DNA of 64,000 bases, taken from an uncultured Nitrospiraceae bacterium (GTDB lineage Bacteria; Nitrospirota; Thermodesulfovibrionia; Thermodesulfovibrionales; SM23-35). A program made the translations under genes and the position numbers. Below the pieces are notes generated by a model that had not been told where the DNA came from, searched no databases, and saw only the letters and a program-made list of their open reading frames with translations. Of the stretch, positions 2,706 to 48,477 are shown in pieces. How positions within the stretch are numbered: the first letter of the stretch is position 1; the number at the start of each line of letters is the position of its first letter. Location: positions 1,408,001-1,472,000 of the forward strand of contig CAVSHB010000001.1 in assembly GCA_963727775.1 (NCBI GenBank), given 5' to 3'.

Positions 2706-3672
2706 AATCATATCGACAGGCTCCTACCTTCCGGAAAAAATCCTTACAAATTATGATCTGGAAAAGATGGTTGACACCTCTGATGAATGGATAATAGAGA
2801 GGACAGGAATAAAAGAGAGAAGAATAGCCGATGAAGGTCAGACTGCGTCTGATCTTGCCTATGACGCTTCAAAGACTGCGCTGAAAAAAGCTGGTCTGAA
2901 AGCCGAAGACATCGACCTTATCATTGTCGCAACAGTTACGGGAGATATGCCTTTTCCTTCAACTGCATGTTTTCTGCAGGGGAAACTCGGTGCGGTAAAT
3001 GCAGCCGGTTTCGACGTAAATGCGGCCTGTTCTGGATTCCTTTATGGTCTTTATATCGCGGATGGGTTTATAAAATCCGGCATGCATAAAAAAATCCTTG
3101 TAGTTGGAACAGAGGTGTTGTCAAAGATCACGGATTGGGATGACAGGGCTACGTGTGTAATTTTCGGCGATGGGGCGGGCGCGGTTATTGTCGGACCTAC
3201 AGATGAAGACCGGGGGATACTTTCAGCGCATATAAACTGCGACGGAAGGATGTGGGATTTTATCCATATACCGGGAGGGGGATCGAAAAACCCGGCTTCT
3301 GTTGAATCCTTGGAACAAAGACTTCACTATATAAAGATGAAGGGAAATGAAACTTTCAAGGTCGCGGTAAGGACACTGGAAGAACTGGGCGTTAAAACCC
3401 TTGAAGAGAACAATTTGGATTCGACGAAGCTTTCACTCTTGGTACCGCATCAGGCGAACCTCAGGATAATACAGGCGACTGCCGACAGACTCAAACTGCC
3501 GATAGACAAAGTCTTCATAAATCTCGACAAATACGGAAATACATCCGCTGCATCCATACCGATAGCCCTCGATGAGGCCGTCACGTCCGGTAGGATCAAC
3601 GCAGGGGATTATGTACTCCTTGAAGCCTTCGGGGGTGGGCTTACGTGGGCATCTGCGCTAATAAAGTGGTAA
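2692..3672 (+). CDS. fabH: Beta-ketoacyl-ACP synthase III
   Basis: Catalytic triad motifs AACSG, PHQAN, YGNTSAAS; ends FGGGLTW. Confidence 0.97.
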   Translation: MLRSRIISTGSYLPEKILTNYDLEKMVDTSDEWIIERTGIKERRIADEGQTASDLAYDASKTALKKAGLKAEDIDLIIVATVTGDMPFPSTACFLQGKLGAVNAAGFDVNAACSGFLYGLYIADGFIKSGMHKKILVVGTEVLSKITDWDDRATCVIFGDGAGAVIVGPTDEDRGILSAHINCDGRMWDFIHIPGGGSKNPASVESLEQRLHYIKMKGNETFKVAVRTLEELGVKTLEENNLDSTKLSLLVPHQANLRIIQATADRLKLPIDKVFINLDKYGNTSAASIPIALDEAVTSGRINAGDYVLLEAFGGGLTWASALIKW

Positions 3673-5808
3673 ACTCCTGACCTCCGTATCAATGAGTTGT
3701 CTGACGACTGAGAGGAGCTCAAGCCTTTCAAACGGCTTTTTAACAACGGCATCTATCATTTTTCTTATGGTTATTCTTTCATTGCCGTAACCGGAAACTA
3801 CGATTATCTTAATATCCGGTTTTATTTCTTTCAGACGTCTTATCAGCTCGTCCCCTTCCATAAGCGGCATCATAATATCCGTTATCACAAGCTGGATCTT
3901 CGCGGAGAAATTGTTGAACATGTCTATTGCGGTCAGAGGATTATCAAAGGGCATAACATCATATCTACTGGTTTCAAGGATATCTTTAATGAGTTTGAGA
4001 ACATCTTTATCGTCGTCAATAACGAGAATGTTTTCATGTCCTTCCAGGGAAACGGGTTGAGACTTCGATAACTTATGGACGATTTTTTCGGAAGATGGTA
4101 TAAAAATATCAAAAGTTGTGCCTTTCCCGACTTCACTCCGGACAGAGATATACCCGTTATGGTCCTTAATGATGCCATAGACAGAAGCAAGTCCCAATCC
4201 CGTGCCTTTACCTTTTTCTTTCGTAGTGAAAAAAGGGTCGAATATCTTGTTCATTATATCCTTGTTTATGCCGCATCCCGTGTCTGATACCGTCAGAACA
4301 ACATATTTACCGGGTGCGACGCTGCCTGATATGTCGGGGTTTTCTTTTCCGATCTCGACGAGATTGGTCCGGACTGACAGGAGACCTCCATCGGGCATCG
4401 CATCTCTCGCATTTACCATGAGATTCATAATGACCCGTTCGAGCTGGTTAGGGTCGCCCTGGAGAGAAGGGAGATTGTTATATAAATCTATCTTCAGCCC
4501 TATCCTTTTATTGAGAACTCCCTCAAAAAGCTTGACGGAATCACTAACAATATCATTCAGATTCAGCGGCAGGACTTCATGCACCTCTCTCCTTGCGAAG
4601 CTCAGAAGTTTTGAGACCATGACACCGGCTTTACGGGAAGAGCTTTCAATATTTTTGACTCTTTGCCGTGAAGTTTCGTCTATGTTACTGTACTCAAGCA
4701 GCAGTTCCGAATAGCCTAAAATGGACGTCAATATATTATTGAAGTTATGCGCAATCCCACCCGCAAGCGCCCCTATGGAATCCATTTTCTGGGAATGCAT
4801 GAGTTGTTCCTGTATTTTTTTCTTTTCAGTAATATCCCTGTAGAATGACTGGATATACGTTTCACCTCCTATATCGATAGACTTTGCGCTTATCTCCAGG
4901 AGGGTTTTGCTGCCATCTTTTTTATAATGCTCCGTCTCAAAGATGAGTGTTTCGCCGTTAAGAATCCTTGACATCCTCTCGTCATGTTTTTCTTTATTAT
5001 TTCCTGCCTCAAGAAGGCCGGTATTGATTCCGATTAATGCATCGCAGTCAAAACCATGAATTTCGCACGCCTTTTGATTGACATTCATGATTACTCCGTT
5101 CTTGTCCAGTACCATGATGCCGTCCGTCGCATTATCAAAAATAGACCTGTGCCATTTTTCCGATATTGCAAGCTCTTTTGTCCTCTCCTGTACCAGTTCT
5201 TCAAGCTGGGTAGAATATGTCTCGAGTTCGCGTTTGTCTTTATCGAGCTCATACTGAAGACTTAACTCATTAGTCAGACTCCGCTGGCTTAGAAATCTCC
5301 AGATTAAGGCGATATTGACAATACTTATCAAAAACGCATTATTGCTTACAAACAATTGCATATTTGTAATACTATCAAAGATCAAAATCGGGAAAAGATA
5401 AATGGAATAAGTAATTGCTACAAGTGTGAGCGACATTTTGAAAGGAAGGGGAAGGACACCCAACAAAAATACAACGGTGATTATCATTCCTGCATAGTAA
5501 GTTGATTGGTGGCCTCCATATGAGAGTATCATAAGCTCAACAGTTGAAGATGTAATGATGACAGTTAATATCAATAAGATATTCTGAGAAAGCTTGCGTT
5601 TACTTTTGCGGTTGAACAAAAACATAATAATCATCATAGTCGTACAAATTGATCGGTAGGTAAAAAATCTGACAAAATTATGCGGGGTTACAAAATAGTC
5701 TAAAGCACTTAATGCAAGAAAAATAAAAGAGGCCGTTACCAAACCGAAAGACAACCAATATTTGGTCAACTTAAAAAGCTCTTGTTCTAAATACTGATTT
5801 TTGTCCAT
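3658..5808 (-). CDS. Membrane-bound hybrid sensor histidine kinase (multi-TM input, PAS, HisKA, HATPase, REC); input domain resembles PhcS
   Basis: About 5-6 N-terminal hydrophobic helices with LDYFVTP and GGHQSTYYAG; PAS domain; H-box IAHNFNN; PFFTTKEKGKGTGLGL; receiver VITDIMMP. Confidence 0.9.
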   Translation of the reverse strand: MDKNQYLEQELFKLTKYWLSFGLVTASFIFLALSALDYFVTPHNFVRFFTYRSICTTMMIIMFLFNRKSKRKLSQNILLILTVIITSSTVELMILSYGGHQSTYYAGMIITVVFLLGVLPLPFKMSLTLVAITYSIYLFPILIFDSITNMQLFVSNNAFLISIVNIALIWRFLSQRSLTNELSLQYELDKDKRELETYSTQLEELVQERTKELAISEKWHRSIFDNATDGIMVLDKNGVIMNVNQKACEIHGFDCDALIGINTGLLEAGNNKEKHDERMSRILNGETLIFETEHYKKDGSKTLLEISAKSIDIGGETYIQSFYRDITEKKKIQEQLMHSQKMDSIGALAGGIAHNFNNILTSILGYSELLLEYSNIDETSRQRVKNIESSSRKAGVMVSKLLSFARREVHEVLPLNLNDIVSDSVKLFEGVLNKRIGLKIDLYNNLPSLQGDPNQLERVIMNLMVNARDAMPDGGLLSVRTNLVEIGKENPDISGSVAPGKYVVLTVSDTGCGINKDIMNKIFDPFFTTKEKGKGTGLGLASVYGIIKDHNGYISVRSEVGKGTTFDIFIPSSEKIVHKLSKSQPVSLEGHENILVIDDDKDVLKLIKDILETSRYDVMPFDNPLTAIDMFNNFSAKIQLVITDIMMPLMEGDELIRRLKEIKPDIKIIVVSGYGNERITIRKMIDAVVKKPFERLELLSVVRQLIDTEVRSLPLY

Positions 5809-5899
5809 TGCCCGCCTTATTGATCGACGTTAGAATATCATTATTTTACCAAATAACTTTTTAAAATATAGAAACATAATTTCGTATCAATAATATGCT

Positions 5900-6160
5900 C
5901 TAAAGTAAAGCCTTGTTTTTTTGTTCAATCAGTTCTTTGGTCAGATCGATTACCTGTTTCACCGTAGTAATCCCGGGTATATCCTCATCTCGTATGGATA
6001 TTTTATATTTCTTTTCAATTGCCACTACTATCTCAATGGACTTGATTGAGTCAATATCTAAATCGTCGGCTAATTTTGTGTCCGATGACATTTCATCTTC
6101 ATCTGTCCCTGAAATCTCTGAGATTATTGCCGTAATTTCTTTTCCTATGTTGTCAGACAT
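5900..6160 (-). CDS. Acyl carrier protein (cluster-specific)
   Basis: Acidic 86-aa protein with LDIDSI phosphopantetheine serine motif. Confidence 0.92.
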   Translation of the reverse strand: MSDNIGKEITAIISEISGTDEDEMSSDTKLADDLDIDSIKSIEIVVAIEKKYKISIRDEDIPGITTVKQVIDLTKELIEQKNKALL

Positions 6161-6162
6161 GT

Positions 6163-7404
6163 CTAATTTTCCTCCCTATCATATATTTTTTTTAAAACCA
6201 TTGAAGCATTATTACCTCCAAAAGCATATGAATTATTCAAAGCAATATGAACGGCGCTTTTTCTGGCCTCATTCGGAACGCAGTCGATGTCACATTCGGG
6301 ATCAAGAGTCTCAAAATTGATTGTGGGCGGGATCACGTTGTTCTTTACAACCAAAGCGCAGGCTATTGCCTCGAGCGCAGAGGCTGCGCCCATTGCATGA
6401 CCTATCATGGATTTGATGGAGCTTACCGGTACTTTCCTGTAAAGCGTACCAAATACCTCTTTAATTGCCGCGCATTCCGCCCTGTCATTTGCCGGAGTTC
6501 CCGTTCCGTGTGCGCTGATATAGCCGATATCCTTTATTTGGATATCCGAATATCTAATCGCTTTCCTCATACATTCTGAAATGCCTTCAACAGAAGGATG
6601 GGTCATATGACTTGCATCGCAGCTGAGCCCGTAGCCGAGTATCTCGGCATAGATTTGGGCCTTCCTTTCTAAAGCGTGGTTTAAAGATTCCAAGACCAGG
6701 ACGCCTGAGCCTTCTGCCGGCATCATCCCTTTCCTGTTTTTATCGAAGGGCTGACACTTTTCCGGTGCCACCGCTCCAAGTTGATTGAAGCCGGTAAATT
6801 CAATCCGGGACAAAGCATCTGAGGCGCCTGCCAGTACAATATCCGCTCTGTTCAATTTGATCATGTCATAGCCGTAACATATAGCATAATTACCCGCTGC
6901 GCAGGCTGTGGAAAACATAATATTCGGACCGTGTAATTGAAATTCCGAGGCTATGCGTGAAGGAGTTTCATGCGCCGGAAGCTGAGATACCAGTCCTTTA
7001 CCGATATTGCCATATTCTTTATTTACTAATAAGTCATCAATTGCTTCAATAGTCTGGACCGCGCCGAGCGTAGTGCCGAAAGAAACACCTACCTCGCTTT
7101 CGGCTAACTCTTGTTCTGTCAAAGCAGCGTCTTCAATCGCGAGTTTTGCTGACGCTATTGCCATTTGCGTTGAACGGCCCATGAACGGTATACGTTCAAA
7201 CGGAATAAAATCCTCGGGGTGAAATATCTTTACTTCACCGCCATAATGAGTGAAATGCGCTGATGTGTCAAAAGATGAAATCTTGCTTATGCCTGATTTC
7301 CCGTTCAAGAGATTATTCCAGAAATCTTTTTTACCGATGCCTATTGAAGATACAACGCCAATCCCTGTTATAACGGTCCTATGATTGTATGACGTTACTT
7401 TCAT
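6163..7404 (-). CDS. Beta-ketoacyl-ACP synthase (FabF/type II PKS KS-like, catalytically intact)
   Basis: STACAAG (Cys), SAHGTGT (His), KSMIGH (His), AFGGNN. Confidence 0.93.
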   Translation of the reverse strand: MKVTSYNHRTVITGIGVVSSIGIGKKDFWNNLLNGKSGISKISSFDTSAHFTHYGGEVKIFHPEDFIPFERIPFMGRSTQMAIASAKLAIEDAALTEQELAESEVGVSFGTTLGAVQTIEAIDDLLVNKEYGNIGKGLVSQLPAHETPSRIASEFQLHGPNIMFSTACAAGNYAICYGYDMIKLNRADIVLAGASDALSRIEFTGFNQLGAVAPEKCQPFDKNRKGMMPAEGSGVLVLESLNHALERKAQIYAEILGYGLSCDASHMTHPSVEGISECMRKAIRYSDIQIKDIGYISAHGTGTPANDRAECAAIKEVFGTLYRKVPVSSIKSMIGHAMGAASALEAIACALVVKNNVIPPTINFETLDPECDIDCVPNEARKSAVHIALNNSYAFGGNNASMVLKKIYDREEN

Positions 7405-7414
7405 GATAAATATG

Positions 7415-8275
7415 CTAATTCTTGGTACACAGGAATCTCCCGTATTTTAAATAGTCATAGTGGGTCTTAATCATGGCCTTTAAATAATGATGGGCCTTAG
7501 CAAAGTATTCTTCATAACCGATCTTTATATAATAAGACTGCGCCATCTCCAGTTCCCTTAAACGGGCGCGCAATCCACGATCGACGATATCAGTCGTATC
7601 TTCTGCATGAAGAACAACAAACCCGGCTTTTTCCAATATTTTTTGTGTTTCTTCAATGCTATTCTGGAACCAGACGCCTTCTGCGTAAATCCCAGGAAAA
7701 TCGCCGCCGGCATCGTTAAGATCACTTTTTTCACCTTTGAGCCATTCATGGAACCCCATAAGACCGCCTTTTTTCAAAGCTTTGAATAGTCCGGCCAATG
7801 CAGTTTTCTGGTCTCTCCAGTGACACATCGTTTCATTATGAAAAATTTTATCAAACATGTCTTCTGCAAAATCCAATTTATGGACGTCTCTGACTTTTCT
7901 CTCGATTAAATGGTCCACTCCTTCAAGGCGATCACAATCAACCGCTTTATTGATCTGGTCCGGATTAATGTCAAAAGCGATGATTCTGCAACCGCGTGTC
8001 TTGGCGATAAGCCTTGTAGGCGCCCCATTGCCGCAGCCGGCGTCTAATAATAAATCATCTTTGTTAATGTTCATCATATTGATCAATTTGAGGACCTCGG
8101 ATTGCAGATGATGCGATAAGCTCTCTATGTCGAGGATGTTTCTGTTTGTGCTTTTGGGGTCGATTCCAAGGACATGGTATAACTTTTGAAGTTCTTCCGC
8201 CGTATAGACCATAAAACCGGTATTGTACGAGTAGCTTTTAAATAGATTCTTTGTGACATTCTCTTCATATGACAT
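7415..8275 (-). CDS. Class I SAM-dependent methyltransferase
   Basis: LLDAGCGNGAP motif I, IIAFDIN motif II, LKKGG. Confidence 0.88.
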   Translation of the reverse strand: MSYEENVTKNLFKSYSYNTGFMVYTAEELQKLYHVLGIDPKSTNRNILDIESLSHHLQSEVLKLINMMNINKDDLLLDAGCGNGAPTRLIAKTRGCRIIAFDINPDQINKAVDCDRLEGVDHLIERKVRDVHKLDFAEDMFDKIFHNETMCHWRDQKTALAGLFKALKKGGLMGFHEWLKGEKSDLNDAGGDFPGIYAEGVWFQNSIEETQKILEKAGFVVLHAEDTTDIVDRGLRARLRELEMAQSYYIKIGYEEYFAKAHHYLKAMIKTHYDYLKYGRFLCTKN

Positions 8276-8295
8276 TTTTGCCTCCGTGATATGGA

Positions 8296-8730
8296 TTAAT
8301 CTTTTACACTAAAAACGAGCTCTGCCTCTGAAACCTTTTTTTCATCAACGAATGCCTCCGCAGATATATAAGCGCCGTTGGGCAGAGATTTAATGTTCAC
8401 AACCTTTATCCTTAACTGGTCTCCCGGCACGACGGGATGGAGAAACCTGGCCTTAACAGATCCGAAATAATAAAGAGGATTTTCAGCGCCTTTTCCTTTC
8501 TTCTCAGTGGCGAAAAGAACGATGGAGGTCTGGGCCATTGCCTCTATTATTGCGGCCCCCGGAAAAACGGCTTTTTCAGGGAAATGCCCGAGAAAGAAAA
8601 TATCGTTGCCGGAAATATTTTTTACAGCCGATGCTTCTTTCCCAGGCTCTAAATTCAGGACTTTGTCTATCATAATAAACGGGAAGCGCTGGGGTATCAG
8701 CTTCTTTATCTCTTCAAAATCAAGTTGCAT
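8296..8730 (-). CDS. 3-hydroxyacyl-ACP dehydratase, FabZ-like
   Basis: LIPQRFPFIMIDKV, FLGHFP, FPGAAIIEAMAQ; start moved to MQLDF at 8730 after GGAGG. Confidence 0.92.
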   Translation of the reverse strand: MQLDFEEIKKLIPQRFPFIMIDKVLNLEPGKEASAVKNISGNDIFFLGHFPEKAVFPGAAIIEAMAQTSIVLFATEKKGKGAENPLYYFGSVKARFLHPVVPGDQLRIKVVNIKSLPNGAYISAEAFVDEKKVSEAELVFSVKD

Positions 8731-8797
8731 AATTTGCCCTCCAAAAAACCTGACGCAAGACGCAGGATGCACGTGCAATCATGATGCATTATGGTAT

Positions 8798-10045
8798 TTA
8801 TTGTCTTGTATTCTGTTCATACTTTCGGATTATAACAGCAGAGTTGTTTCCGTATGGATCGGATGATATAACCAGTGCATTCTTGATATCTTTCCGTCTC
8901 GGTTGATTCGGAACGTAATCGAGATCGCAATTAAGGTCTTTTTCCTTATAGTTCACTGTTGGCGGAATATATCCCTCTGTTATGGCGCGTAGGGCGGCTG
9001 CAACTGATAAAGCCCCGGAAGCAGAGAAAGATTCACCCACCATAGATTTTATTGAACTTACCGGTATATCACGAGAATGTTCCCCGAAGACATCCTTTAT
9101 GACCTTCGTTTCCATCATGTCCAATCCTTTAGTTGAGTTTGCGGTGGAAGATATATATTCCACTGCTTCGGGAGGCAGAGAGGCATCCTTTAAGGCAAGA
9201 GTTATGGCTTTTTTCAGGCCATTCCCTGTGTAATTAAAATAGCAGTCTGTTCCCGGATCAAAGGAATTACCATGCCCGGCGATTTTGGCCAGGATGTTTG
9301 CTCCCCGAATCAAGGCATGTCCCTCTTCTTCGAGAACAATAATTGCTGCGCCTTCGGAAAAGATGGCACCATTCCTACGTGCATCAAAGGGGCAGCACAC
9401 AGGTTCGGAGCCATCGGACCCTGAAAGATACCCAAGTTTATGTAAAAATAGGAAAGTTTCCTCACATAATTCTTCAACCCCGCCGGCAAGAACTGCGCTG
9501 ACCCTATTGAGTCGAATGAAGTCTGCGGCGTATGAGAGGGCATCAAGGCTTGCGCAGAAACCGGTTGATACGGTTGTGTTGAACCCCTTTATTTTGAAAC
9601 GGATAGAGACCTGGCTTGCCGGAGAATTAAGCACTGTATTGGGAAAATGTGATGGATTGACATACTTAGGTCCTTCAATAAGACCTTCACGGTCAAACTG
9701 AGAAATACTATGAAGACTTCCGAATGTTGAGCCGACAGAGACACCTATGGAACCCGCATTCTCTTCAGTGATCTGGAGCCCGGCGTCATCAATAGCAAGC
9801 TTTGCGGCTGAACAGATCAATTTCGTGCTTCTGTCAAGCGTGCGAAGTCCTTTTTTGCCAAGAAATGCCGCCGGGTCAAAACGAGTTATCTCCCCCGCGA
9901 TATGGACATTAAAATCTGCTGTATCAAAGAGATTTATTGTTCCGAATCCTGTCTCTCCTCTGAATAAGCCTCCACAGTATTCTTCTTTGCCTATGCCTAC
10001 AGGTGAAAGGACACCTATGCCTGTCACAACAACATTTTTCTTCAT
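8798..10045 (-). CDS. Ketosynthase-fold protein lacking catalytic residues (chain-length-factor-like)
   Basis: Full KS fold, but STGFCAS / SSTANST / KSMVGE replace TACxx / AHGTGT / KSxxGH. Confidence 0.85.
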   Translation of the reverse strand: MKKNVVVTGIGVLSPVGIGKEEYCGGLFRGETGFGTINLFDTADFNVHIAGEITRFDPAAFLGKKGLRTLDRSTKLICSAAKLAIDDAGLQITEENAGSIGVSVGSTFGSLHSISQFDREGLIEGPKYVNPSHFPNTVLNSPASQVSIRFKIKGFNTTVSTGFCASLDALSYAADFIRLNRVSAVLAGGVEELCEETFLFLHKLGYLSGSDGSEPVCCPFDARRNGAIFSEGAAIIVLEEEGHALIRGANILAKIAGHGNSFDPGTDCYFNYTGNGLKKAITLALKDASLPPEAVEYISSTANSTKGLDMMETKVIKDVFGEHSRDIPVSSIKSMVGESFSASGALSVAAALRAITEGYIPPTVNYKEKDLNCDLDYVPNQPRRKDIKNALVISSDPYGNNSAVIIRKYEQNTRQ

Positions 10046-10047
10046 TC

Positions 10048-11322
10048 CTATTTATTGACCAGATAGAAAACTATTATGCCGGATTCGTCACGAATCTCGG
10101 ATATTGAAGAGTAAGGAATTTGAGATTCATGGAAAATATCCATGAAATCTTCTTCAGTTCGCTGTAGGAACCCGTCCCAGTCAACGATCCAGCGGTATTG
10201 CTGAGAGCTATATCGTGCAGCATCTTTAAAGGATGTGATAAGCAAACCTCCCGGATTTAGAAGATTGTATAATGCATTAAACAAATTTGATAGAAAATCA
10301 GATTGCAGGTAGTCAAAAAAACCTACGCTGTAAATGATATCCTGTTTGCCGAACTCGCTCATATTTAACTCATGATCGAACATCCTGACAGCGTTATATT
10401 TACGGACATTAACCAGATTTGATATGGTCGGTGAGATGTTCGTATAGGACAGGCGATTTGCGGCAAAAGCAAGGGCATCGTTATCTAAATCAATACAGGT
10501 AAATTTTGCTCCGGAATTTTCTATTTCAGGAGCCAATTCAAAGACCTCACGGCATGAGCCGCAGGCTATATTCAAGACGGACGGTTTTTGTCTCTTAAGC
10601 AGCTCGCCTTTTAATATTTCTTTAAGTTTTTTTATTCTATTCCTTACCCCTAAAGCCAGTTGGGCATTTAAACCATATAAATCCAGATAATACCCTATCC
10701 CATCCGACAACGGAGTATTTCTGTACATATTTTCAAGCATTTTATAGTCACCCTGATATCCCTGCGGCCATGTTCGCGCCCGGTTCATAAAGTAGCTTTT
10801 CGATAAGATAGCATTGGTTTTTTCACGGAACCTGGTCTGCGCATCTCGCACGATATCTTTGTCCTTCACCTCTGTCTCAAAAACCTTGCATGCTTCACAT
10901 ACATCATCAACAGCGGTTCTTGTTATCTCAAATATTTCTTCAGAGACTTCCGTTGCACCGTAACATTTTTTTTCTATTTCTTCAAGCTGTTTATTAAATA
11001 TCTCTGTTGCTTCGTCGAGCGCCTTTATATGTTTTCCGTCAAGCTCGATACCTGCCTTATAAGTATCGTCAAGCTTTGTGCACCATCTCACAAAACCTGC
11101 CTTTTCTTCTATCCCGCCATCGAACCACAACATATTGCCTGTCTCCAAAGGGTAGTCTGTCTGGATACAAATTCCTGCTTCACTGATATTGACAGCCTTA
11201 CCTTTCAGCTGCAACCATTTGTGTTCCTTTGATCCGGAAACGCTCAATGAATAGTCAATGGTCTGTGAATAAGGTTTCCTTTCGTATCTTCTTGCGTTAA
11301 GCATAGTTGATGCGTTCTGCAT
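10048..11322 (-). CDS. PilZ domain fused to a SAM-dependent methyltransferase of the PhcB-like (fatty-acid methyl ester synthase) type
   Basis: N-terminal RRYER and NISEAG PilZ motifs; C-terminal WPQGYQGDY...RNR...LNIACGSCRE...YSVGFFDYL...LLNPGG. Confidence 0.75.
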   Translation of the reverse strand: MQNASTMLNARRYERKPYSQTIDYSLSVSGSKEHKWLQLKGKAVNISEAGICIQTDYPLETGNMLWFDGGIEEKAGFVRWCTKLDDTYKAGIELDGKHIKALDEATEIFNKQLEEIEKKCYGATEVSEEIFEITRTAVDDVCEACKVFETEVKDKDIVRDAQTRFREKTNAILSKSYFMNRARTWPQGYQGDYKMLENMYRNTPLSDGIGYYLDLYGLNAQLALGVRNRIKKLKEILKGELLKRQKPSVLNIACGSCREVFELAPEIENSGAKFTCIDLDNDALAFAANRLSYTNISPTISNLVNVRKYNAVRMFDHELNMSEFGKQDIIYSVGFFDYLQSDFLSNLFNALYNLLNPGGLLITSFKDAARYSSQQYRWIVDWDGFLQRTEEDFMDIFHESQIPYSSISEIRDESGIIVFYLVNK

Positions 11323-12065
11323 AACTTTCCTCCCTTTTTTAATTGTTGTGATAATTGACTTTTACAGTCGCTTTCCCACTTTTTTTTTAATTTTAAATCT
11401 ATATTTCTCCAAATGTCTGTCGGGAGAGTTTGACTTTTTTTGTAGGGGAAGTTTGATTTTTGAAAAAAAAGGAAAGATTATGGTAAATCTTTTCTATTAT
11501 TATTTTTTGATGAAGCTTTGTGCGCTGATGAATGCGATCTCCTGAAAATCTTTTCGATTTTGTCTCTGTAAGCCGTTGAGATCAATATAATTAAAATTGC
11601 GATTCCCAGGAGAACTGAAAACCTGTAATATTGATGACGTCGAATATAATCTACCGCCGAGTGTCAATAAAACTGTGCCCAGAAACCTTCCGGTAGTGCT
11701 GATCACCAGAAATTCTTTTAAGCTCAGATGGCCAAGTCCGAGGATATAGCAAAGGTAATCCTTAAGGAAAGCCGGGTATCAGGAAGAGTAAAAATACCAG
11801 GAAAGCCCCTTTATGGTGAAGAAGATAATCATACCGGTATAAAACCGAGAAAAGAGAGGGGACCGAGAGAATTCAGGAAAGCGGTCATTTTTTCCCTGTT
11901 GAGGAAAAAAGAGATCATGCCTGTTTTATACAGGATGAAGGTTGAACCTGCAACAATCGAAACGAGAATTGCTAATTTAAGCCATGTCTTATTTCGAAAT
12001 TTTCCTATGGGTATTCTCCTCTTTCATTACGGAGACATTCCTCACTTTTTGAAATCCTTTGCCAT

Positions 12066-19556: not shown

Positions 19557-20489
19557 TTAGTCTTCTAACAATTCCCTTATAGTGAGCAATACCGATTCGC
19601 TGAGCGCATGAAGATTATAACCTCCTTCAAGCGCAAACACATACGGTATAGACGGAAGATATGTCGTCGTTTTCTTTAGAAGAATCCCCCTCACTATATT
19701 CCTCATTCCCTCATATGTGACATTGATACCTGACAAAGGGTCATCGGCGTGTATATCATAACCTGCGGATATAAGTATGATGTCCGGACGGAAGTTTTTG
19801 ATTAATCCGGGCAGGATATCACGGTACGCGTAATAGTAATCTTTATCTCCCGATCCGGGACGCAAAGCTATGTTATATGTAAAGCCTTCACCTCTGCCCT
19901 TTCCCCGCTCGGTATCTTTTCCGGTACCGGGATAGTGAGGATACTGGTGAGTGCTGAAATAAAAAACAGTATCATCTTCTTCGAAGCTGTGCTGGGTGCC
20001 GTTTCCGTGATGGACATCAAAATCAATGATGAATATTTTTTCGTACCCGACCTTCTGGGCATAACGGGCCCCCACTGCAATATTATTGAAGATGCAGAAA
20101 CCCATCGCGGTGTCCGCTTCGGCGTGATGGCCGGGTGGCCGCACAGCGCAGAATGCCCTTTCTATTTCTCCTTTTCTGCACCTGTCTATAGCTTCAATGA
20201 CAGCGCCAGCAGCGAACATTGCCGCCTCAAATGAGTTTTCAGAGATGTATGTGTCGGGGTCATAATAACCTGTGAATTTTTTTATGCTGTCGAAATATTC
20301 CCTGGTATGAATTGACAGTATATCTTCGTCTTTTGCCCTTCGGGGTTTAATCTGAATAAGCTTATTCCAGAGGTCGGAATTTTTCAGGGCGTCTGTTATG
20401 GCAATTAGTCTTTTGGAGGATTCGGGATGTCCGATGGGCATCTCGTGTTTAAGGAATATGTCGTCGTATACGAAACCGATTTTTTTCAT
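19557..20489 (-). CDS. Histone deacetylase family (AcuC/HDAC-like) zinc-dependent deacylase
   Basis: HPES, RPPGHHA, GFCIFNN, DFDVHHGNGTQ, SAGYD, LEGGY. Confidence 0.95.
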   Translation of the reverse strand: MKKIGFVYDDIFLKHEMPIGHPESSKRLIAITDALKNSDLWNKLIQIKPRRAKDEDILSIHTREYFDSIKKFTGYYDPDTYISENSFEAAMFAAGAVIEAIDRCRKGEIERAFCAVRPPGHHAEADTAMGFCIFNNIAVGARYAQKVGYEKIFIIDFDVHHGNGTQHSFEEDDTVFYFSTHQYPHYPGTGKDTERGKGRGEGFTYNIALRPGSGDKDYYYAYRDILPGLIKNFRPDIILISAGYDIHADDPLSGINVTYEGMRNIVRGILLKKTTTYLPSIPYVFALEGGYNLHALSESVLLTIRELLED

Positions 20490-20525
20490 AATCAGATGTT
20501 ATTTATTCGATAGTGAAAACAATAA

Positions 20526-22289
20526 TTAAAACAAGCCTTTAACCTTGCCGGTCTCAACATCTACATCAACCCTTCTGAAAGCGGGATCAGAGGCGGTCCC
20601 GGGCATTAATTTAACAGCGCCTGCGACAGGCACAATAAAACCGGCGCCCTTATAGGTAAGAATATCACGCACGAAAAGTTTCCATCCCTTTGGAACGCCT
20701 TTTAAATTCGGATTGTCAGAAAGACTAAGGTGTGTTTTGACCATACATGTTCCGAGTTTGGATATTTCAGGGTCGTCTTCCATCCTCTTCGCTTTTGCCG
20801 AGGCTTCAGGCGAGTATTCGACCCCGTCGGCGCCGTATACCTCTTCGGCAATCATCTCGATACGCTTGCGCAATGGCGTAGTCAGTTCGTAAAGGAATTT
20901 AAAATTGTTCGGCTCGTTGCAGGCGTCTATAACGGCATCGGCAAGCTCTAAAGCTCCTTCGCCGCCATATTGCCAGTGCTTTGACAATGCGACCCGTGCT
21001 CCTGCCGACTCAGCAAGTCTTCTTACTGTTTTGATTTCATTGTCCGTGTCGGTGAAAAAGGCGTTGATACAGACTACCGGATTAATGCCCGCTTTCTTTA
21101 CTGTCCTGATATGCTGGGCAAGATTCTCGCATCCCTTTTCAACCCATTCTACATTTTCATTTTTATATTCCGCCGGCATAGGTTTTCCGGGCACGGGAAT
21201 CGGGGCGCCGCCGTGACATTTCAATGCCCTTATTGTAGAGACAATAACAGATGCATTGGGTTTTAAACCTGAAAATCTGCACTTTAGGTTCCAGAATTTC
21301 TCAAACCCTATGTCCGCACCAAAACCCGATTCTGTTATATGGTAATCTCCTAGCTTCAGGCCTATCCTGTCGGCGATGATTGAAGACTGTCCGATAGCGA
21401 TATTGGCGAAAGGACCGGCGTGAACAAGCACAGGCTGTCCTTCGATAGTCTGCATAAGGTTGGGATTTAACGCTTCGACCATCCAGGCCGCCATTGCGCC
21501 TGCGACTTCAAGTGCCTCTGTAGTCACCGGGTTGCCTTTTTTATCATAAGCAACGACGATCTTTCCCATCCGTTCACGCATGTCTTTCAGGTCCTTCGAA
21601 ACCGCAAGGATGGCCATTATTTCCGACGAGACAGCAATGGCGAATCCGGAATTCATCATAAAGCCGTCACTCTTGCCGCCGATACCGATTATTATCTCTC
21701 TCAATGACTGAGCGCAAAAATCCATGATCCATTTCATCTCGACATTACGCGGGTCGATGTTAAGTCTTTGTAACTTACGCTTTGCAAGCTGCTCGTCAGT
21801 ATAGTTGAATTCGTGCTGCATACGGGAGGTAAGGGCCACCATAGCGAGGTTATGCGCGTTCATAATAGCGTTTATATCTCCGGTAAGCCCGAGTGAAAAA
21901 GGCGTCAATGGAATACACTGTGACAGCCCCCCGCCTGCTGCAGAACCTTTGATGTTCATGGTCGGGCCACCTGACGGCTGCCGTATGGCGGCTATAACAC
22001 TCTTGCCTCTTTTTCCGAGTCCTTCGGTGAGGCCCATGGTTGTCGTAGATTTTCCTTCACCGAGAGGTGTAGGAGTGATAGCAGTTACATTAATGTATTT
22101 TCCGTCGGGTTTGTTGTTAAGACGATTCAGTATGTTCTTGAAATCGAGTTTTGCCACATAATGACCGTGAGGAAGGAGTTCCTGTTTTTCCAGGCCCAAC
22201 TCCTCGCTTAATTGATAGACCGTTTTCATGTGAGATTCCGCTGCTTCTGCAATCTCCCAATCTGCATGCTTTGTTGGATCAAGCGGCAT
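20526..22289 (-). CDS. fhs: Formate--tetrahydrofolate ligase
   Basis: [39 protein letters not shown]. Confidence 0.97.
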
Positions 22290-22395
22290 TTTAATAACCC
22301 TCCTGTATAAAAGTATTAAGTAGGCAGTAAACAGTAGATAGGTGGTACAGACTCAAAATTAATTCTGTATGCCGCCCACTGTATGCTTACTTAGG

Positions 22396-22851
22396 TCAGT
22401 AGCTGATTAGCGCGCTCAGGAATTTATCGTTCATTCGCCTCAGATTCTTGCTCATGGCGATAGCGATCTTCTTTACTATACAAAGTGCGAGGTAACAATC
22501 TTCTTCCATCATTCTGTCGAAATCTTCTTTTGGGATCAAGAAAAGCTCTGTATCCTCAAGGGCCGTAGCGGAAGCGACATGTTTCCTTTTTTCGAGAATT
22601 GAAAGCTCTCCGAAGAAATGACCGGGTGGCAGAACAACAATGGTCTGCCTCCACCCGTCAGCGGTTATTTTGGATATCTCAATCTTTCCCGAATGGATGA
22701 GCCACAGGCCGTGCGTTTCTTCAGATTCCTTAAATAAGGGCTCGCCTTTTTTGATGAAGACTTCTTTTGCAATTTTGACTATCTTGTTCAGCCCTGCTGT
22801 GTCGATACCTTGAAGCAAAACCTGTTGCTTTAATGCTTCCGGCTTAATCAT
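22396..22851 (-). CDS. Stand-alone cyclic-nucleotide-binding (Crp-type effector) domain protein
   Basis: GHFFGELSIL...HVASATA; no C-terminal HTH; ATGA overlap with fdhA. Confidence 0.85.
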   Translation of the reverse strand: MIKPEALKQQVLLQGIDTAGLNKIVKIAKEVFIKKGEPLFKESEETHGLWLIHSGKIEISKITADGWRQTIVVLPPGHFFGELSILEKRKHVASATALEDTELFLIPKEDFDRMMEEDCYLALCIVKKIAIAMSKNLRRMNDKFLSALISY

Positions 22852-25604
22852 GATCTCCCTCCTTGTTGAATCTGTTTATTTTTGCGTTCTATTTTTACCG
22901 CGCACACTTTAAACTCGGGTATTTTCGAGACCGGATCGAGAGCGGTATTTGTCAATACATTTGCCGCGGCTTCTCTGTAATGGAAAGGCATAAAAACAAT
23001 TCCCTTTATCGGTCGCACGGAAATGGAGACTTTAACATCTATAGAACCTCTTCTTGAGGAGACCTTCACAATCTCGCCGTCATTGACATTTAATATATTC
23101 GCGTCATCAGGATGGATCTCTATAAATGCCGAGGGACATACTGCATTAATCGCGTCGATCTTTCTTGTCATTGAGCCTGTATGATACTGAAAAAGCTGTC
23201 TTCCTGTCGAGAGTAAAAACGGATAATCCTTATCGGGTAATTCATCGGACGGTCTGTATCCCGTGACTGTGAAGGCAGCTTTGCCTCTCGGGAAGCCTCC
23301 CTTAAAGAGATATTGCGTTCCCGGATGGTCCGGTGTAGGGCAGGGCCATTGAAGTCCATTTTGAGCTAACCTCCTGTAAGTTACGCCTCTCAGCGCCGGC
23401 CAGAGTTCCCCTGCCTCACGGAATACATCTTCAATCGAGTCATAAGCCATGTCGTACCCGAGTCTTTTTGACAATTCGGTGATGATGAAAGAATCTTCCT
23501 TTGCCTCACCGGGCGGATCCAGCGCTTTCCTGACTCTCTGGACCATTCTTGCGGTGTTTGTGAATGTCCCGTCCTTCTCTGCAAAGCAGGATGCCGGTAA
23601 TACTACATCGGCAAGCTCTGCCGTCTCCGTCATAAAGATATCCTGGACCACAAGAAGGTCCAACTTTGTTAACGCAGAGATAGTGTGGCTCATATGAGGA
23701 TCGCTAAGAACAGGATTTTCTCCCATAATATATATCGCCCTGAGACTTCCTTCATGGGCTGCTTCGGTCATCTCAGTCGCAGTAAGTCCTTTTTTGTCTG
23801 ATAGCTTGACACCCCATGCCATCTGAAATTTCTGCCTGATACCCTGTATTGCCGTCTTCTGATAGCCCGGATAGAATTCGGGTATGCACCCCATATCGGT
23901 TGCGCCCTGTACATTGTTCTGTCCTCTCAGCGGGTTGACTCCTGTACACTCCCTCCCGAGATTGCCGGTCATTAACGCAAGGTTTGCTATGGCAAATACA
24001 TTTTCGGTGCCGTGTGTATGTTGAGTAATCCCCATTGTGTAATAAATGCCAGGTCGAACGGCATTACCATATATCAGCGCCGCTTTTATGATGTTTTCCT
24101 TCGGCACTCCGGTTATGCTTTCTCCTGTTTGAGGTGTGCAATCGGAAAGGGATTGCCTGATGGATTCAAATCCTTCAGTACGTTCTTCTATGAATTTCTT
24201 GTCTATCAGCCCTTCTTCTACGATGACATGCATAATGGAGTTCAAAAGCGCGATATCGGTGCCGGGTCTGTGCTGCAGCCATAACTTGGAGAACCTCACG
24301 AGATCGATCTTTCTCGGGTCCGCCACGATAAGTTCGGCGCCCCTTCTCACGGCCTTCTTCATTTTGAGTCCTACGATCGGATGGGTTTCCGTCGTGTTCG
24401 AGCCTATTACAAAAATAACATCGTGGTTTTCGGTCTCGGCAATCGAGTTTGTCATCGCTCCGGAACCGAATACCGTGGCCAGCCCGGCCACTGTTGAACT
24501 ATGTCAGTACCGGGCGCAGTGGTCGATATTGTTCGTGCCTATGGCCGCTCTCATTAACTTCTGGAACAGATAATTTTCTTCATTGGTACACCTTGCCGAA
24601 GATAACCCACCGATGGAATCAGCGCCGTATTTGTCCTTTATCTGTTTCAGCTTTGTTGAGATATAATCCAAAGCCTCATCCCACGAAACTTCTTTGAAAA
24701 GATTTGATATTTGATATTTGATATCTGAAGCTCTATGAACATAATCCGGAACCTGATTTTCCTTTGGCGCTATTCTGATCAAGGGCTTTGTGAGCCTGTC
24801 CGGGCTGTGTATGAAACCGTATCCGAATCTTCCTTTCGCGCAGAGCCATCCTTCATTAATCGTGTCTTGTTTCGAAGACACTCTTATGACCTCATTGCGC
24901 CTCACAAAAAGTGTCAGGTTGCAGCCGCAGCCGCAATAGGGGCAGATTGTGTCTACTTCTTTGAAGTGCTGCCTTCCTTTATTCGTCCACATCTTTCCTG
25001 TGAGGGCGCCCGTAGGGCATACCGCAACGCACTGGCCGCAGAACTCGCAGTCGAGGTCCCTTTCAAAAGGCGGGACGATCTTTGTTTTCAACCCTCTGTA
25101 AGCAAAGTCTATGGCCCCGACTCCTTGTATCTCGTCGCATATGCGCACACATTTACCGCAGAGAATACATTTTTCCATATCTCTTTCGACAAATGGATTA
25201 TTGTCCTTCTTTGTATAAATCCTTCTCTCTCCCTCGAAACGGTTTTCCCTGATACCGTAAAAATATGCATATTCCTGGAGTTTGCAGTCTCCGGCCCTTT
25301 CACAGACCATGCAATCTTTCGGGTGATCGGAGAGTATCAGTTCCAATGTTGTTCTCCTCATTTTCTCGAGCTGCGGGCTTGTTGTTATTACTTCCATGCC
25401 GTCCCGCGCAAATGTCGTGCATGCGGTCACGGGTTTGGGCAAACCCTTGATTTCGACAAGGCATAGCCTGCACCCTCCAAAAGGGGAGAGTTCCGGATGG
25501 TGGCAGAGCGTCGGGATAGGGATATCAAGTTTTCTTGCCCCGTCGAGGATAGTGGATAATTTCCTTACGGAAACTTTTTTGCCGTCTATCTTAAGATTTA
25601 CCAT
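22848..25604 (-). CDS. fdhA: Selenocysteine-containing formate dehydrogenase alpha subunit (N-terminal Fe-S domain; Mo/W-bis-PGD)
   Basis: Two track ORFs are in frame across the TGA at 24506-24504: NIDHCARY-U-HSSTVAGL. Also CPYCGCGC, CAKG, RGQNNVQG, PEFKVCAV; SECIS-like hairpin follows the TGA. Confidence 0.93.
24472..24494 (-). promoter_or_regulatory. Putative bacterial SECIS hairpin
   Basis: GUGGCC-GGGCU-GGCCAC stem-loop starting 12 nt after the in-frame UGA. Confidence 0.75.
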
Positions 25605-27386
25605 TTACGCTTTCACTATCGCCTTAAACTTGCATGCGTCAAAACAAGTCCCGCACTTGATACATAGTTCCTGATCAATTTTATGAGGGGATTTTTTTCT
25701 GCCTCTCACCGCGTCTGCCGGACAAGCCCTTTTGCAGGCTTCGCATCCCTTGCAGGCCGCTTCAAGAATGGAATATGAGATCAAATCCCTGCACACCGCT
25801 GCAGGACATCTTTTGTCTCTGATATGCGCTTCATATTCATTTCTGAAATATCTGATAGTGCTCAATACGGAATTTGGAGCAGTCATCCCCAATCCGCATA
25901 ATGAGGCCGCCCTGATATAATGGCCGAGCTCTTCAAGAAGCTCTATGTCTCCTTCTTTCCCTTTTCCCGCCGTTATCCGCTCTAAAATTTCGAGCATCCT
26001 CTTCGTACCGATACGGCAGGGCGTACATTTGCCGCACGACTCGGCCTGTGTGAATTCAAGAAAGAATTTTGCAGTGTTGACCATGCAGCTCGTCTCATCG
26101 AGGACGACCATCCCGCCTGAACCTATGATCGAGCCTGCCTGTGCCAGTGTTTCATAGTCGACCTCTATATCAAGCAATTCAGCTGGAATACATCCGCCGG
26201 ACGGACCGCCCGTCTGTAATGCCTTGAACTCTTTTCCGCCTTCGATCCCTCCGCCTATATCGTAAATTATTTTTCTAAGGGTAACACCAAAAGGGACTTC
26301 GATAAGACCTGTATTCTTTACTTTTCCGGACAGCGAAAAGACTTTGGTCCCGCCGCTCCTGTCGGTCCCGAGCTTTCTGTACCAAGCGGCGCCGTTAAGA
26401 ATAATTCTTGGGATATTTGCAAAGGTCTCTACATTGTTTAACACGGTAGGCCTGTCCCATAATCCTTTTTCCGCAGAGCGCCACATCTTCGGGCTCGGCA
26501 TTCCGCGTTTGCCTTCGATAGAGCGCATCAACGCCGTTGCTTCACCGCAGACAAATGCGCCTGCACCCTGGAATATCTTGAGATCAAAATCAAAATCAGT
26601 GCCGAAAATATTTTTACCGAGGTAGCCGTTCTCATAGCACCGGTCGATGGCCATCTGAAGGCGTCTGACCGCCAAGGGATATTCCGCCCTTACATAGATA
26701 TAGCCGTGATGGGATTCCGTAGCTTTTGCGCCTATGATCATCCCTTCGATGACTGAATGGGGATCTCCCTCCATAACGGACCTGTCCATAAAAGCGCCGG
26801 GATCGCCTTCATCACCGTTGCAGATGACATATTTAATGTCGGACTTGATCTTGAGTCCGAGTTCCCATTTCAGCCCCGTCGGAAAGCCCGCGCCGCCTCT
26901 TCCCCTTAAATTTGATCCCTTGATAATTTCTACAACCTCTTTTGGTCCCATAGATGTGAGGACCTTTTTTGCGGCTTCGTAGCCCCCGACCGCAATATAG
27001 GCATTGATATCCTCCGGATCGATCTCTCCGCAATGGGACAGCACCACTTTCGTCTGCCTTTCGTGGAATTTGTGGTATTCATCTTCGACAACCCATTCTG
27101 TGACGGGCTTCCCATTTATGATATGCTCATTCAGAATCCTTTCGACCATGTCTGCTTTGATGTGCTTGTAAGTGGTTTTTTCACCGTCGATGATGATATC
27201 AACGAGGACATCCTTTGAACAGAACCCCCTGCAACCGACCTTTTCTGCGGAGCACCTTTCAGAAAATGTCGCCTCTCTGCCGGAAGACGATATAGCGTCC
27301 CTGAATGCGGACAACACCATGGCGGCGCCTGAGGCCACGCCTCCGGTGCCGGTGCATACCTTGATTACTATCTCCTTGTTCATCAA
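25605..27386 (-). CDS. NuoF/HydB-like NADH/FMN-binding subunit of the FDH complex
   Basis: LRGRGGAGFPTG, CNGDEGDPGAFMDR, GAGAFVCGE, ESCGKCTPCR, two C-terminal 4Fe-4S motifs. Confidence 0.93.
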   Translation of the reverse strand: MMNKEIVIKVCTGTGGVASGAAMVLSAFRDAISSSGREATFSERCSAEKVGCRGFCSKDVLVDIIIDGEKTTYKHIKADMVERILNEHIINGKPVTEWVVEDEYHKFHERQTKVVLSHCGEIDPEDINAYIAVGGYEAAKKVLTSMGPKEVVEIIKGSNLRGRGGAGFPTGLKWELGLKIKSDIKYVICNGDEGDPGAFMDRSVMEGDPHSVIEGMIIGAKATESHHGYIYVRAEYPLAVRRLQMAIDRCYENGYLGKNIFGTDFDFDLKIFQGAGAFVCGEATALMRSIEGKRGMPSPKMWRSAEKGLWDRPTVLNNVETFANIPRIILNGAAWYRKLGTDRSGGTKVFSLSGKVKNTGLIEVPFGVTLRKIIYDIGGGIEGGKEFKALQTGGPSGGCIPAELLDIEVDYETLAQAGSIIGSGGMVVLDETSCMVNTAKFFLEFTQAESCGKCTPCRIGTKRMLEILERITAGKGKEGDIELLEELGHYIRAASLCGLGMTAPNSVLSTIRYFRNEYEAHIRDKRCPAAVCRDLISYSILEAACKGCEACKRACPADAVRGRKKSPHKIDQELCIKCGTCFDACKFKAIVKA

Positions 27387-27859
27387 TCGCCTGACTTCAG
27401 CTTTTTTATCTCTTTCATCAATTTGTCGAGAGTTATCTTGCCGTGTACTTCGTGGTTAATCAATGTCACAGGGGCAATGCCGCAGGCGCCGATGCAGTTG
27501 ACCTTTTCCACCGTGAATTTAAGGTCCGCTGTCGTATCATCCCCAGGGGGAATGTCAAGCTCCAGTGAAAGCCTGTTGATCAGTCTTTCAGAGCCTTTAA
27601 CATGGCAAGCAGTTCCGCGGCAGACTGTAACCACATTTTTGCCTCTCGGCTTCAGATGAAATTGTGAGTAGAAGGTAGCTGTTCCGAAAAATCTGCTGGC
27701 GGGGATATCAAGCTTTCGTGAAAACCAGTTTACGGCTTCTTCGGGTATATAACCGCATGCTTTCTCAATATCCTGGAGGATGGTTATAATATTACCGTCA
27801 TTTGTTATATAATGTTCAAGTATCTTATTGAAGGTTTCTTGCATAGTTAGAGGGCTCAT
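27383..27859 (-). CDS. NuoE/HydC-like 2Fe-2S subunit
   Basis: ATFYSQF, VCRGTACHVKG, CIGACGIAP. Confidence 0.93.
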   Translation of the reverse strand: MSPLTMQETFNKILEHYITNDGNIITILQDIEKACGYIPEEAVNWFSRKLDIPASRFFGTATFYSQFHLKPRGKNVVTVCRGTACHVKGSERLINRLSLELDIPPGDDTTADLKFTVEKVNCIGACGIAPVTLINHEVHGKITLDKLMKEIKKLKSGD

Positions 27860-31759: not shown

Positions 31760-32590
31760 TCATGCCGCTACCTGTATCTGAGGTAGTGTAGTCCAGTAAA
31801 CCTCATCCGGGGTCCTGTCGTCAAGGCCTTGATGCCGACGCCGATTGTTGTAGAACTCGAAATAATCTGCAAGCCCGCGCCTGGCCTCGGTAATAGAGCC
31901 ATAGGCCTTCAGATGTATATCTTCGTACTTTACGCTCCTCCAGAGTCTTTCTACGTAGACGTTGTCCACCCAGCGTCCTTTGCCATCCATGCTGATACCG
32001 ATGCCATTGCTGATGAGAATGTCCGTAAAGGCGTCCGAGGTGAACTGACTGCCCTGGTCGGTGTTGAATATCTCCGGTGTTCCATACTTCCTGATCGCTT
32101 CTTCAAGCGCCTCGGTGCAGAAGGAGGCGTCCAACGTGTTTGATAGTCGCCACGCCAGCACCCGTCGGCTTGCCCAGTCCATGATCGCTACGAGGTAGCA
32201 GAACCCCTTGGCCATTGGAATATATGTTATATCGGTTGCCCAAACGTGGTTGGCGCGGTTAATCTCCAGCTCCCGCAGGAGATAGGGATAAATTTTGTGC
32301 TCCGGATTCGGTTTCGACAGCCTGGGTTTCGGGTATAAGGCTCTGATGCCCATCTTCTTCATCAAGGTGCTGACATGGCTGCGTCCTACGTCATGTCCGA
32401 GGTCCCGAAGTTCATTGCGTATCCGCCGAATGCCGTAAAACGGATACTTCAGGTGGATCTCATCGATCAGAAGTATAAGTTCCACATCCCGCTTGCTGGT
32501 CGGAACCGCCTCGTAGTACAGGCTCGATCGGGATAGCTCAAGTATCCGGCTTTGCCGCGTCAGCGGTAAGGTATGCTCAGGGTCGATCAT
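31760..32590 (-). CDS. IS3 transposase OrfB (DDE integrase core)
   Basis: [33 protein letters not shown]. Confidence 0.95.
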
Positions 32591-48468: not shown

Positions 48469-48477
48469 TCGACCCTC

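Follow-up and report, generated by a model that had tools for sequence, protein, structure and literature searches.

Phc signalling has been described for Ralstonia and its kin, in which PhcB is reported to make 3-OH-MAME or 3-OH-PAME, the methyl esters of 3-hydroxymyristic and 3-hydroxypalmitic acid, and PhcS to sense the signal, both proteins co-evolving with the signal type; the operon there encodes no private synthase for PhcB. Cluster I of the bacteria that oxidize ammonium anaerobically (anammox bacteria), represented by kuste3603-3608, is reported to hold genes of the types amxACP, amxFabZ, amxFabF2, amxFabF(mut), phytoene-dehydrogenase homologue and B12 radical S-adenosylmethionine (SAM) enzyme (PMC4790861). 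According to a 2026 preprint (bioRxiv 10.64898/2026.05.19.726425), amxFabF2 pairs with amxFabF(mut) in a heterodimer like that of a ketosynthase (KS) with its chain length factor (CLF), which primes to acetoacetyl-acyl carrier protein (ACP), prefers a C8 probe and has tunnels that fit C12 and C16; a ladderane product is, by the same account, still unproven for Cluster I itself. Here, we analysed 64,000 nucleotides from an uncultured Nitrospiraceae bacterium (assembly GCA_963727775.1, contig CAVSHB010000001.1, positions 1,408,001 to 1,472,000), hereafter the window. Seven genes at window positions 3658-11322 place a KS/CLF, dehydratase (DH) and ACP module, with a second methyltransferase, between a relative of PhcB and a kinase with a PhcS-like sensor. 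We consider it probable that they encode cell-to-cell signalling of the Phc type: an acyl chain custom-built by the module would be released as a methyl ester by the PhcB relative, and this ester would be perceived by the kinase. This reading is based on gene content, homologies, linkage and residue signatures, from which we infer the steps of the mechanism.

The seven-gene locus and its PhcB-like and PhcS-like ends

All seven open reading frames (ORFs) are intact and co-directional on the minus strand, and read from the PhcB-like gene to the kinase:

10048..11322, minus strand: PilZ-fused PhcB-family SAM methyltransferase (P0001), 424 aa
8798..10045, minus strand: chain-length-factor-like inactive ketosynthase (P0002), amxFabF(mut)-like, 415 aa
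8296..8730, minus strand: FabZ-type dehydratase (P0003) with amxFabZ-type tunnel residue Ile70, 144 aa
7415..8275, minus strand: second, cluster-specific SAM methyltransferase (P0004, MT2), a putative tailoring enzyme for O- or C-methylation, 286 aa
6163..7404, minus strand: active-type ketosynthase (P0005), amxFabF2-like, 413 aa
5900..6160, minus strand: dedicated acyl carrier protein (P0006) with Ser38, Pfam PP-binding, 86 aa
3658..5808, minus strand: hybrid histidine kinase (P0007) with PhcS-like six-helix membrane input (residues 1-205), PAS, HisKA (His354), HATPase and receiver (Asp644), 716 aa

From the PhcB-like end, the gaps between genes are 2, 67, 20, 10, 2 and 91 bp. A preliminary description of this DNA had reported seven co-directional, mostly tightly packed genes, and translation of the ORFs and Pfam searches confirmed it. 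The domains are, in order, PilZ and class I methyltransferase; KS; FabA/Z; methyltransferase; KS; ACP; and MASE8-PAS-HisKA-HATPase-REC, with the PilZ of P0001 and the MASE8 of P0007 below the Pfam cut-offs (20 bits each). The earlier statement that no ketoreductase (KR), acyltransferase (AT) or thioesterase (TE) is encoded holds for the seven genes, which also lack an enoyl reductase (ER); many relatives, however, hold FabG inside the cluster. Since the primary fabG-acpP-fabF locus and the primary fabZ sit elsewhere in the genome, the cluster is a second, dedicated system. Its gene order is kept across two classes and is thus not a matter of chance.

We surveyed 201 Nitrospirota genomes, of which P0001 matched 57 (8 by PilZ alone), the CLF 28 and the sensor 49. 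All 28 CLF-bearing genomes carry both PhcB-like and PhcS-like genes; PhcB lies no further than 3 kb away in 26 of them, and in 22 the kinase is adjacent (within 7 kb), which bears out the co-conservation of kinase and biosynthetic genes that had been set as a test of the circuit. Among the unlinked genomes, G091 and G179 break at the KR gene, and the kinase of G063 and G187 lies near a contig end; G107, G119 and G164 were not traced to their kinases. We also fetched 101 loci around PhcB genes, a count that includes near-duplicates and related loci that are not independent. A PhcS-like kinase is reached in 54, comprising 13 bare phcB-phcS pairs and 41 loci with the module between the two genes, and the remaining 47 are mostly short contigs. 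We detected no CLF orthologue among plasmids (best 37%) or in five proteobacterial genomes (29-33%). In one locus (L044, genome G131), the KS, DH and kinase genes are fragmented, through decay or assembly error.

The reference set for PhcB and PhcS grew from a plasmid match that led to a Paraburkholderia methyltransferase-kinase-regulator-regulator operon and on to 80 loci, almost all from Burkholderiales. We took these loci as phcBS because they have Arg at PhcB position 22 (in the 13 loci inspected) and Leu at PhcS position 161 (in the locus L189), both of which are named as Phc residues (PMC6989110). Among the 11,727 ORFs of the source genome, the sole match below E 0.1 to the 80-sequence PhcB profile was P0001 (E 2.6e-14; next 0.6), and the sole such match to the PhcS membrane-domain profile was P0007 (E 8.7e-8). 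Conversely, P0001 retrieved phcB, adjacent to phcS, as the sole match in 4/4 Burkholderiales genomes, and an alignment of Nitrospirota sensors alone retrieved phcS as the sole match, again in 4/4. Comparison of the P0007 sensor with the PhcS membrane domain by hhalign gave a probability of 98.5% over 172 columns. The PhcB/PhcS homology that had been set beforehand as a test is thus supported in both directions, and with it the PhcS-like input domain proposed for the last gene. The PhcB-family motifs proposed for the first gene (P-x-GY-x-GDY, RNR, ACG and GxFDYL) are present and align with Burkholderiales PhcB.

Many P0001 homologues carry the Joint Genome Institute (JGI) name '3-hydroxypalmitic acid methyl ester biosynthesis protein'. 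We found no solved relative of P0001 by sequence, no NCBIfam model at cut-off for it, and none on Paraburkholderia PhcB at E 1e-15. P0001 likely methylates the carboxyl group of the acyl product and releases it. Both PilZ motifs are kept in 29/41 of the fused relatives, which makes control by cyclic di-GMP (c-di-GMP) a reasonable but hypothetical addition to this predicted role. A model of the PhcB-ACP complex passed weakly (0.44 versus 0.00 for the best control, with one of three runs at 0.01), with contact agreement of at least 89% and a partner predicted local distance difference test (pLDDT) score of at least 79; passes as low as this were seen for 18/157 solved complexes and for 2/2 passing mismatches. 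On an Enterobacter ludwigii plasmid (NZ_CP134637.1; L115:5754-8891), a type I polyketide synthase (PKS) ends in KS-ACP-PhcB-like methyltransferase, and its PhcB-like domain is a candidate methyl-ester release domain. Together, this plasmid PKS and the weak complex model make direct action of P0001 on acyl-ACP plausible.

PhcB-like genes were also seen in other settings. On Rhizobium/Neorhizobium plasmids (L114:3755-7038 and L116), a PhcB-like methyltransferase gene stands head-to-head with a large gene, annotated in L114 as encoding an EAL-domain protein. A distant PhcB-like gene in genome G159 (L050:5849-11779) is flanked by the gene for a FadL-type channel and by one whose product is a dehydrogenase-E1/lipoyl/FabH fusion, a set that by its predicted proteins is a different private chain-starting module. 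In genome G086 (L049:8377-9843), an N-terminal cyclic nucleotide (cNMP)-binding domain replaces PilZ on the PhcB-like methyltransferase, and a plasmid-borne Paraburkholderia phcBS-like operon has a cyclopropane-fatty-acyl synthase family gene directly upstream (L113:3337-4359). The PhcB-like genes of L214 (G015) are fragmented, again through decay or assembly error, and viral contigs held one distant PhcB-like locus.

The sensor of P0007 was modelled as six helices (pLDDT 92). Its fold resembles ImcA and the membrane anchors of adenylyl cyclases (Z 17.1, with a root-mean-square deviation of 3.5 and 204 aligned; 16.3; 16.1; next 10.3), a shared fold being no proof of function; a Foldseek search with the model gave no match within E 0.001. 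Two positions beyond the YYxG motif, Asn occurs in 39/40 Ralstonia/Cupriavidus PhcS, 0/31 Paraburkholderia PhcS, 9/13 bare pairs and 0/35 module-linked sensors, and P0007 has Ile109 at this site. On one reading, which we offer as a hint, the Asn replacement may reflect a changed head group of the ligand. Two or three PhcS-like kinases stand in tandem after the module in L076, L083, L084, L086 and L107, and several genomes have up to four PhcS-like sensors, some far from any synthase found.

The acyl-chain module and its tailoring genes

The preliminary description had proposed a dedicated KS-CLF-ACP-DH-methyltransferase module; this gene content stands, and what had been overlooked is anammox Cluster I as the nearest characterised relative. 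P0005 has the catalytic triad C168/H299/H336, and P0002 carries F163/T301/E338 at the corresponding positions in place of Cys/His/His, in agreement with the claim of one active and one inactive KS. The best match in the Protein Data Bank (PDB) for P0005 is 9S5H_B (473 bits; 6KXD 338; FabFs at most 299), for P0002 it is 9S5H_C (387.5 bits versus 256.8 for the next), for P0003 it is 8AYD (125 bits versus 113), and for P0006 it is 7QV0_D (52.1 bits versus 49.7 for AcpM, a narrow margin of 2.4 bits). 8AYD is amxFabZ and 7QV0 is the amxFabZ-amxACP complex (PMC10139942); we infer that 9S5H is the Brocadia (B. fulgida) amxFabF2/amxFabF(mut) heterodimer, because its residues fit the numbering of the 2026 preprint. 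The tunnel residues F134/T137/V138 of P0002 agree with amxFabF(mut), and among the cluster CLFs the Phe/Thr/Val tunnel residues occur in 56/62 and Phe at the catalytic-Cys site in 54/62; 46/52 cluster KSs were parsed as Cys-His-His. The amxFabZ-type tunnel Ile is found in 56/57 cluster DHs, and the primary FabZ of the genome has Gly. In amxFabZ, this Gly-to-Ile change goes with preferential use of chains no longer than C8 (PMC10139942). We conclude that, judged by sequence and least clearly for the ACP, the KS/CLF-DH-ACP module is anammox-Cluster-I-like. Since uncharacterised CLF representatives, one from Poribacteria, score as high or higher (389-451 bits), the anammox proteins can be called the closest relatives among those characterised, but not a sister group. 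Similar type II fatty acid synthesis (FASII) clusters are reported from deltaproteobacteria without ladderanes (PMC2649909).

Relatives of the cluster add FabG (above cut-off), a CrtI-like flavoenzyme (below cut-off), a B12/radical SAM enzyme (L058) or the last two together. The last case, L209, has the full gene-type content of kuste3603-3608, matched by type, not by orthology. The window lacks flavoenzyme and radical SAM genes and has MT2 in their place. MT2 is present as the preliminary description had said; its exchangeability among relatives was not visible there, and going by these gene sets it is one of several swappable tailoring genes. Its family is tight, with 93/94 homologues at 45-97% identity before a drop to 27%, and it occurs in 7/401 genomes, each time beside KS/ACP genes. 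Because the nearest solved relatives (PEAMT, AtmM/RebM, SpnF-like and MitM) span N-, O- and C-methyltransferases, its reaction is not assignable to one type. A possible likeness of its ExxCH motif to sterol C24-methyltransferases found little support and was dropped, 6F5Z standing near the bottom of the 60 matches listed. The radical SAM gene is present in 2/41 module loci; the named matches closest to it come from Nitrospirota, Fibrobacterota and Spirochaetes, and none of the matches listed bears an anammox name.

In quick trees, a single branch sets the module-linked PhcBs apart (Shimodaira-Hasegawa-like approximate likelihood ratio test, SH-aLRT, 96 and 92), with bare pairs and Burkholderiales opposite. 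Insertion of the module into an ancestral phcB-phcS pair would fit the best trees, without being established. Two alternative roots inside the module clade were not rejected (approximately unbiased (AU) test, p 0.26 for both), so the direction of change, module gain versus loss, is not fixed. Over 35 rows of the PhcB tree, tailoring genes changed repeatedly (MT2 6 times, flavoenzyme 6, KR 2 and radical SAM 2), a pattern that loci governing specificity should show. In the eight loci without a flavoenzyme, the sensors are closer (mean distance 0.48 versus 0.55) and the PhcBs are not (0.41 throughout), which is suggestive only.

Proposed circuit and alternative explanations

In the circuit that we propose, the KS/CLF heterodimer would prime and extend a short-to-medium chain on its private ACP, borrowing FabD and, here, FabG from primary fatty acid synthesis. 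The Ile-gated DH would remove water mainly from early, short intermediates, and double bonds would persist because the cluster has no ER. MT2 would then add an O- or C-methyl mark, and in relatives the CrtI-like flavoenzyme and/or the B12 radical SAM enzyme would give rise to different signal dialects. The PhcB relative would methylate the carboxyl, probably on or just off the ACP and possibly gated by c-di-GMP through PilZ. Binding of the ester to the six-helix membrane domain would shift the His354-to-Asp644 phosphorelay, which would act on an output partner. We count in favour of this circuit the reciprocal homology of both ends, their presence in every CLF-bearing genome, the missing Asn of module-linked receptors, the tandem receptors, the repeated tailoring swaps and the position of the module between phcB-like and phcS-like genes in 41 loci.

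Several observations weigh against the circuit. Identity of P0001 to PhcB is 22-26% (22% to a Ralstonia PhcB) and the family is broad, so its substrate and role may have drifted. The change at the receptor Asn amounts to a single event, confined to one branch, and the Paraburkholderia PhcS are without this Asn too. The operon has no PhcR/Q-like response regulator and ends at the hybrid kinase; no search for PhcR/Q or PhcA extended to the rest of the genome. Synthase and sensor distances give a Mantel r of 0.47 over 48 pairs, and the correlation is weak within the 35 module loci (0.17), where receptor and synthase trees differ. Genome G040 is truly split, yet KS, ACP, flavoenzyme and kinase stay together in it, and the module loci L071/L072 run into unrelated genes without a kinase. 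Lastly, the preprint reports that amxFabF(het) primes but shows no elongation in vitro.

The alternative that survives best, although we regard it as unlikely, is that the module makes a cell-bound membrane or envelope lipid and the kinase monitors that lipid, or the membrane, in the same cell, as feedback regulation. Among characterised clusters, the one most closely related to the core is believed to produce membrane lipids; plsX-fabH borders the locus, which comes after nfeD/SPFH and a DedA/VTT gene; and the sensor fold is common to membrane anchors of cyclases. However, the cluster has no acyltransferase or ligase, and a methyl ester would block the carboxyl through which the chain would be attached to a lipid. 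Loci of one family (f17) have neither the plsX/fabH nor the SPFH neighbours, and tandem receptors with swapped tailoring genes fit signal dialects better.

It is also distinctly improbable that the PhcB/PhcS pair acts as in Ralstonia on ordinary 3-hydroxy fatty acids, the KS/CLF module being a co-regulated passenger that makes an unrelated metabolite. The phcB-phcS pair can stand without the module, since the 13 bare loci are from the same phylum, and the unfixed direction of gain or loss leaves room for such a passenger. Against this, the CLF is accompanied by both end genes in 28/28 genomes and is seated between them, and the module-linked PhcBs keep to one side of their branch, with receptors that carry another residue at the Asn position. 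A strained-ring lipid, ladderane-like or other, such as has been proposed for Cluster I, would agree with the best structural matches of all four core proteins and with the paired CrtI-like and B12/radical SAM genes of L209, but is very unlikely indeed, as the window has neither enzyme, radical SAM genes are rare in module loci and of no anammox kinship among the relatives listed, and Desulfotalea, with syntenic clusters, is reported to have produced no ladderanes (PMC2649909).

Genome context and comparison with known systems

The Phc-type circuit would operate in a host whose genome, like 4/4 relatives tested, has the sulfite-reduction gene dsrA above cut-off; the named homologues of the cluster proteins are from Nitrospirota/Thermodesulfovibrionales. 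The cluster converges on plsX-fabH, the 3' end of the kinase gene overlapping the convergent fabH by 15 bp, and the upstream neighbours are nfeD/SPFH and then the DedA/VTT gene. Sensor-coding DNA has 35% GC versus 45% for the genome, and a promoter and terminator scan was at chance level (20 versus 20.1). Between SPFH and the PhcB relative, at window positions ~11530-12030 on the minus strand, the DedA/VTT-domain membrane-protein gene is degraded. It has frameshifts, stops and a deletion of ~200 bp relative to L051, where the DNA is 97% identical and a 212-aa frame is open; in the remaining relatives the gene is intact or absent. Elsewhere in the window lie, on the minus strand, genes for formate-tetrahydrofolate ligase, a split molybdopterin oxidoreductase and NuoEF-like proteins (19557-27859) and, with a small ORF as its partner, an NrfA-type cytochrome c552 gene (47002-48936). 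Transposase genes are found at 31760-32590 (integrase-core, rve) and 55526-56002 (IS200-like).

The operon is undescribed in the literature that we searched, which was judged mostly by titles and abstract openings and left most subscription journals outside. A conserved version of Phc with a private, variable assembly line would give uncultured dsrA-bearing Nitrospirota, anaerobes of sediments and wetlands, a chemical language, and would define a family of designer methyl-ester signals. More tentatively, it is possible, if on present evidence doubtful, that the anammox Cluster I core is a general acyl-scaffold machine, used by Nitrospirota as a signal synthase with exchangeable tailoring enzymes. 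On that reading, the product would leave the PhcB relative as a methyl ester open to extraction, so that this operon, or its L209 version with both the CrtI-like and the B12 radical SAM genes, would on expression give a first view of what such a core produces, and perhaps evidence that the ladderane synthase is not Cluster I. The 2026 preprint restricts the Cluster I gene set to ladderane producers, a claim that the Nitrospirota clusters contradict, and such clusters had already been called rare but not unique by Rattray 2009 (PMC2649909). The Nitrospirota clusters are natural variants, with a likely release enzyme, of a pathway whose product has resisted reconstitution.

Three described systems are the closest to this locus. 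With phcBSRQ of Ralstonia, Cupriavidus and Paraburkholderia it shares a homologous methyltransferase and membrane input domain, in the same order and in one operon. Unlike phcBSRQ, it has a five-gene acyl synthase between the PhcB-like and PhcS-like genes, an N-terminal PilZ on the PhcB relative and a PAS-containing hybrid kinase with its own receiver; the operon is without phcR/phcQ, Ile109 stands in place of the receptor Asn, and the host, from the Nitrospirota, bears dsrA. With anammox Cluster I it has in common a KS, CLF and DH that best match the Cluster I structures, including the DH Ile and the CLF Phe/Thr/Val tunnel, the ACP doing so by a narrow margin; among its relatives, both kinds of Cluster I tailoring enzyme are found. 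In contrast to Cluster I, the core in the window is flanked by PhcB-like and PhcS-like genes, includes a SAM methyltransferase, has a different gene order and is without the phytoene-dehydrogenase homologue and the B12 radical SAM gene. The highly reducing type II PKS of ishigamide, Iga11/Iga12 (6KXD), resembles the locus in combining a KS/CLF heterodimer with an ACP and a DH while lacking an ER, and is the second-best KS match. It scores 135 bits below the anammox KS, however, the CLF of the window is closer to amxFabF(mut) and FabF, and release in the window appears to be by a methyltransferase. Since its operon lacks phcR/Q, the locus falls outside strict phcBSRQ, and since it has neither of the two Cluster I tailoring genes, for a flavoenzyme and a radical SAM enzyme, it also falls outside strict Cluster I; it most likely would work like a Phc system that uses Cluster I machinery.

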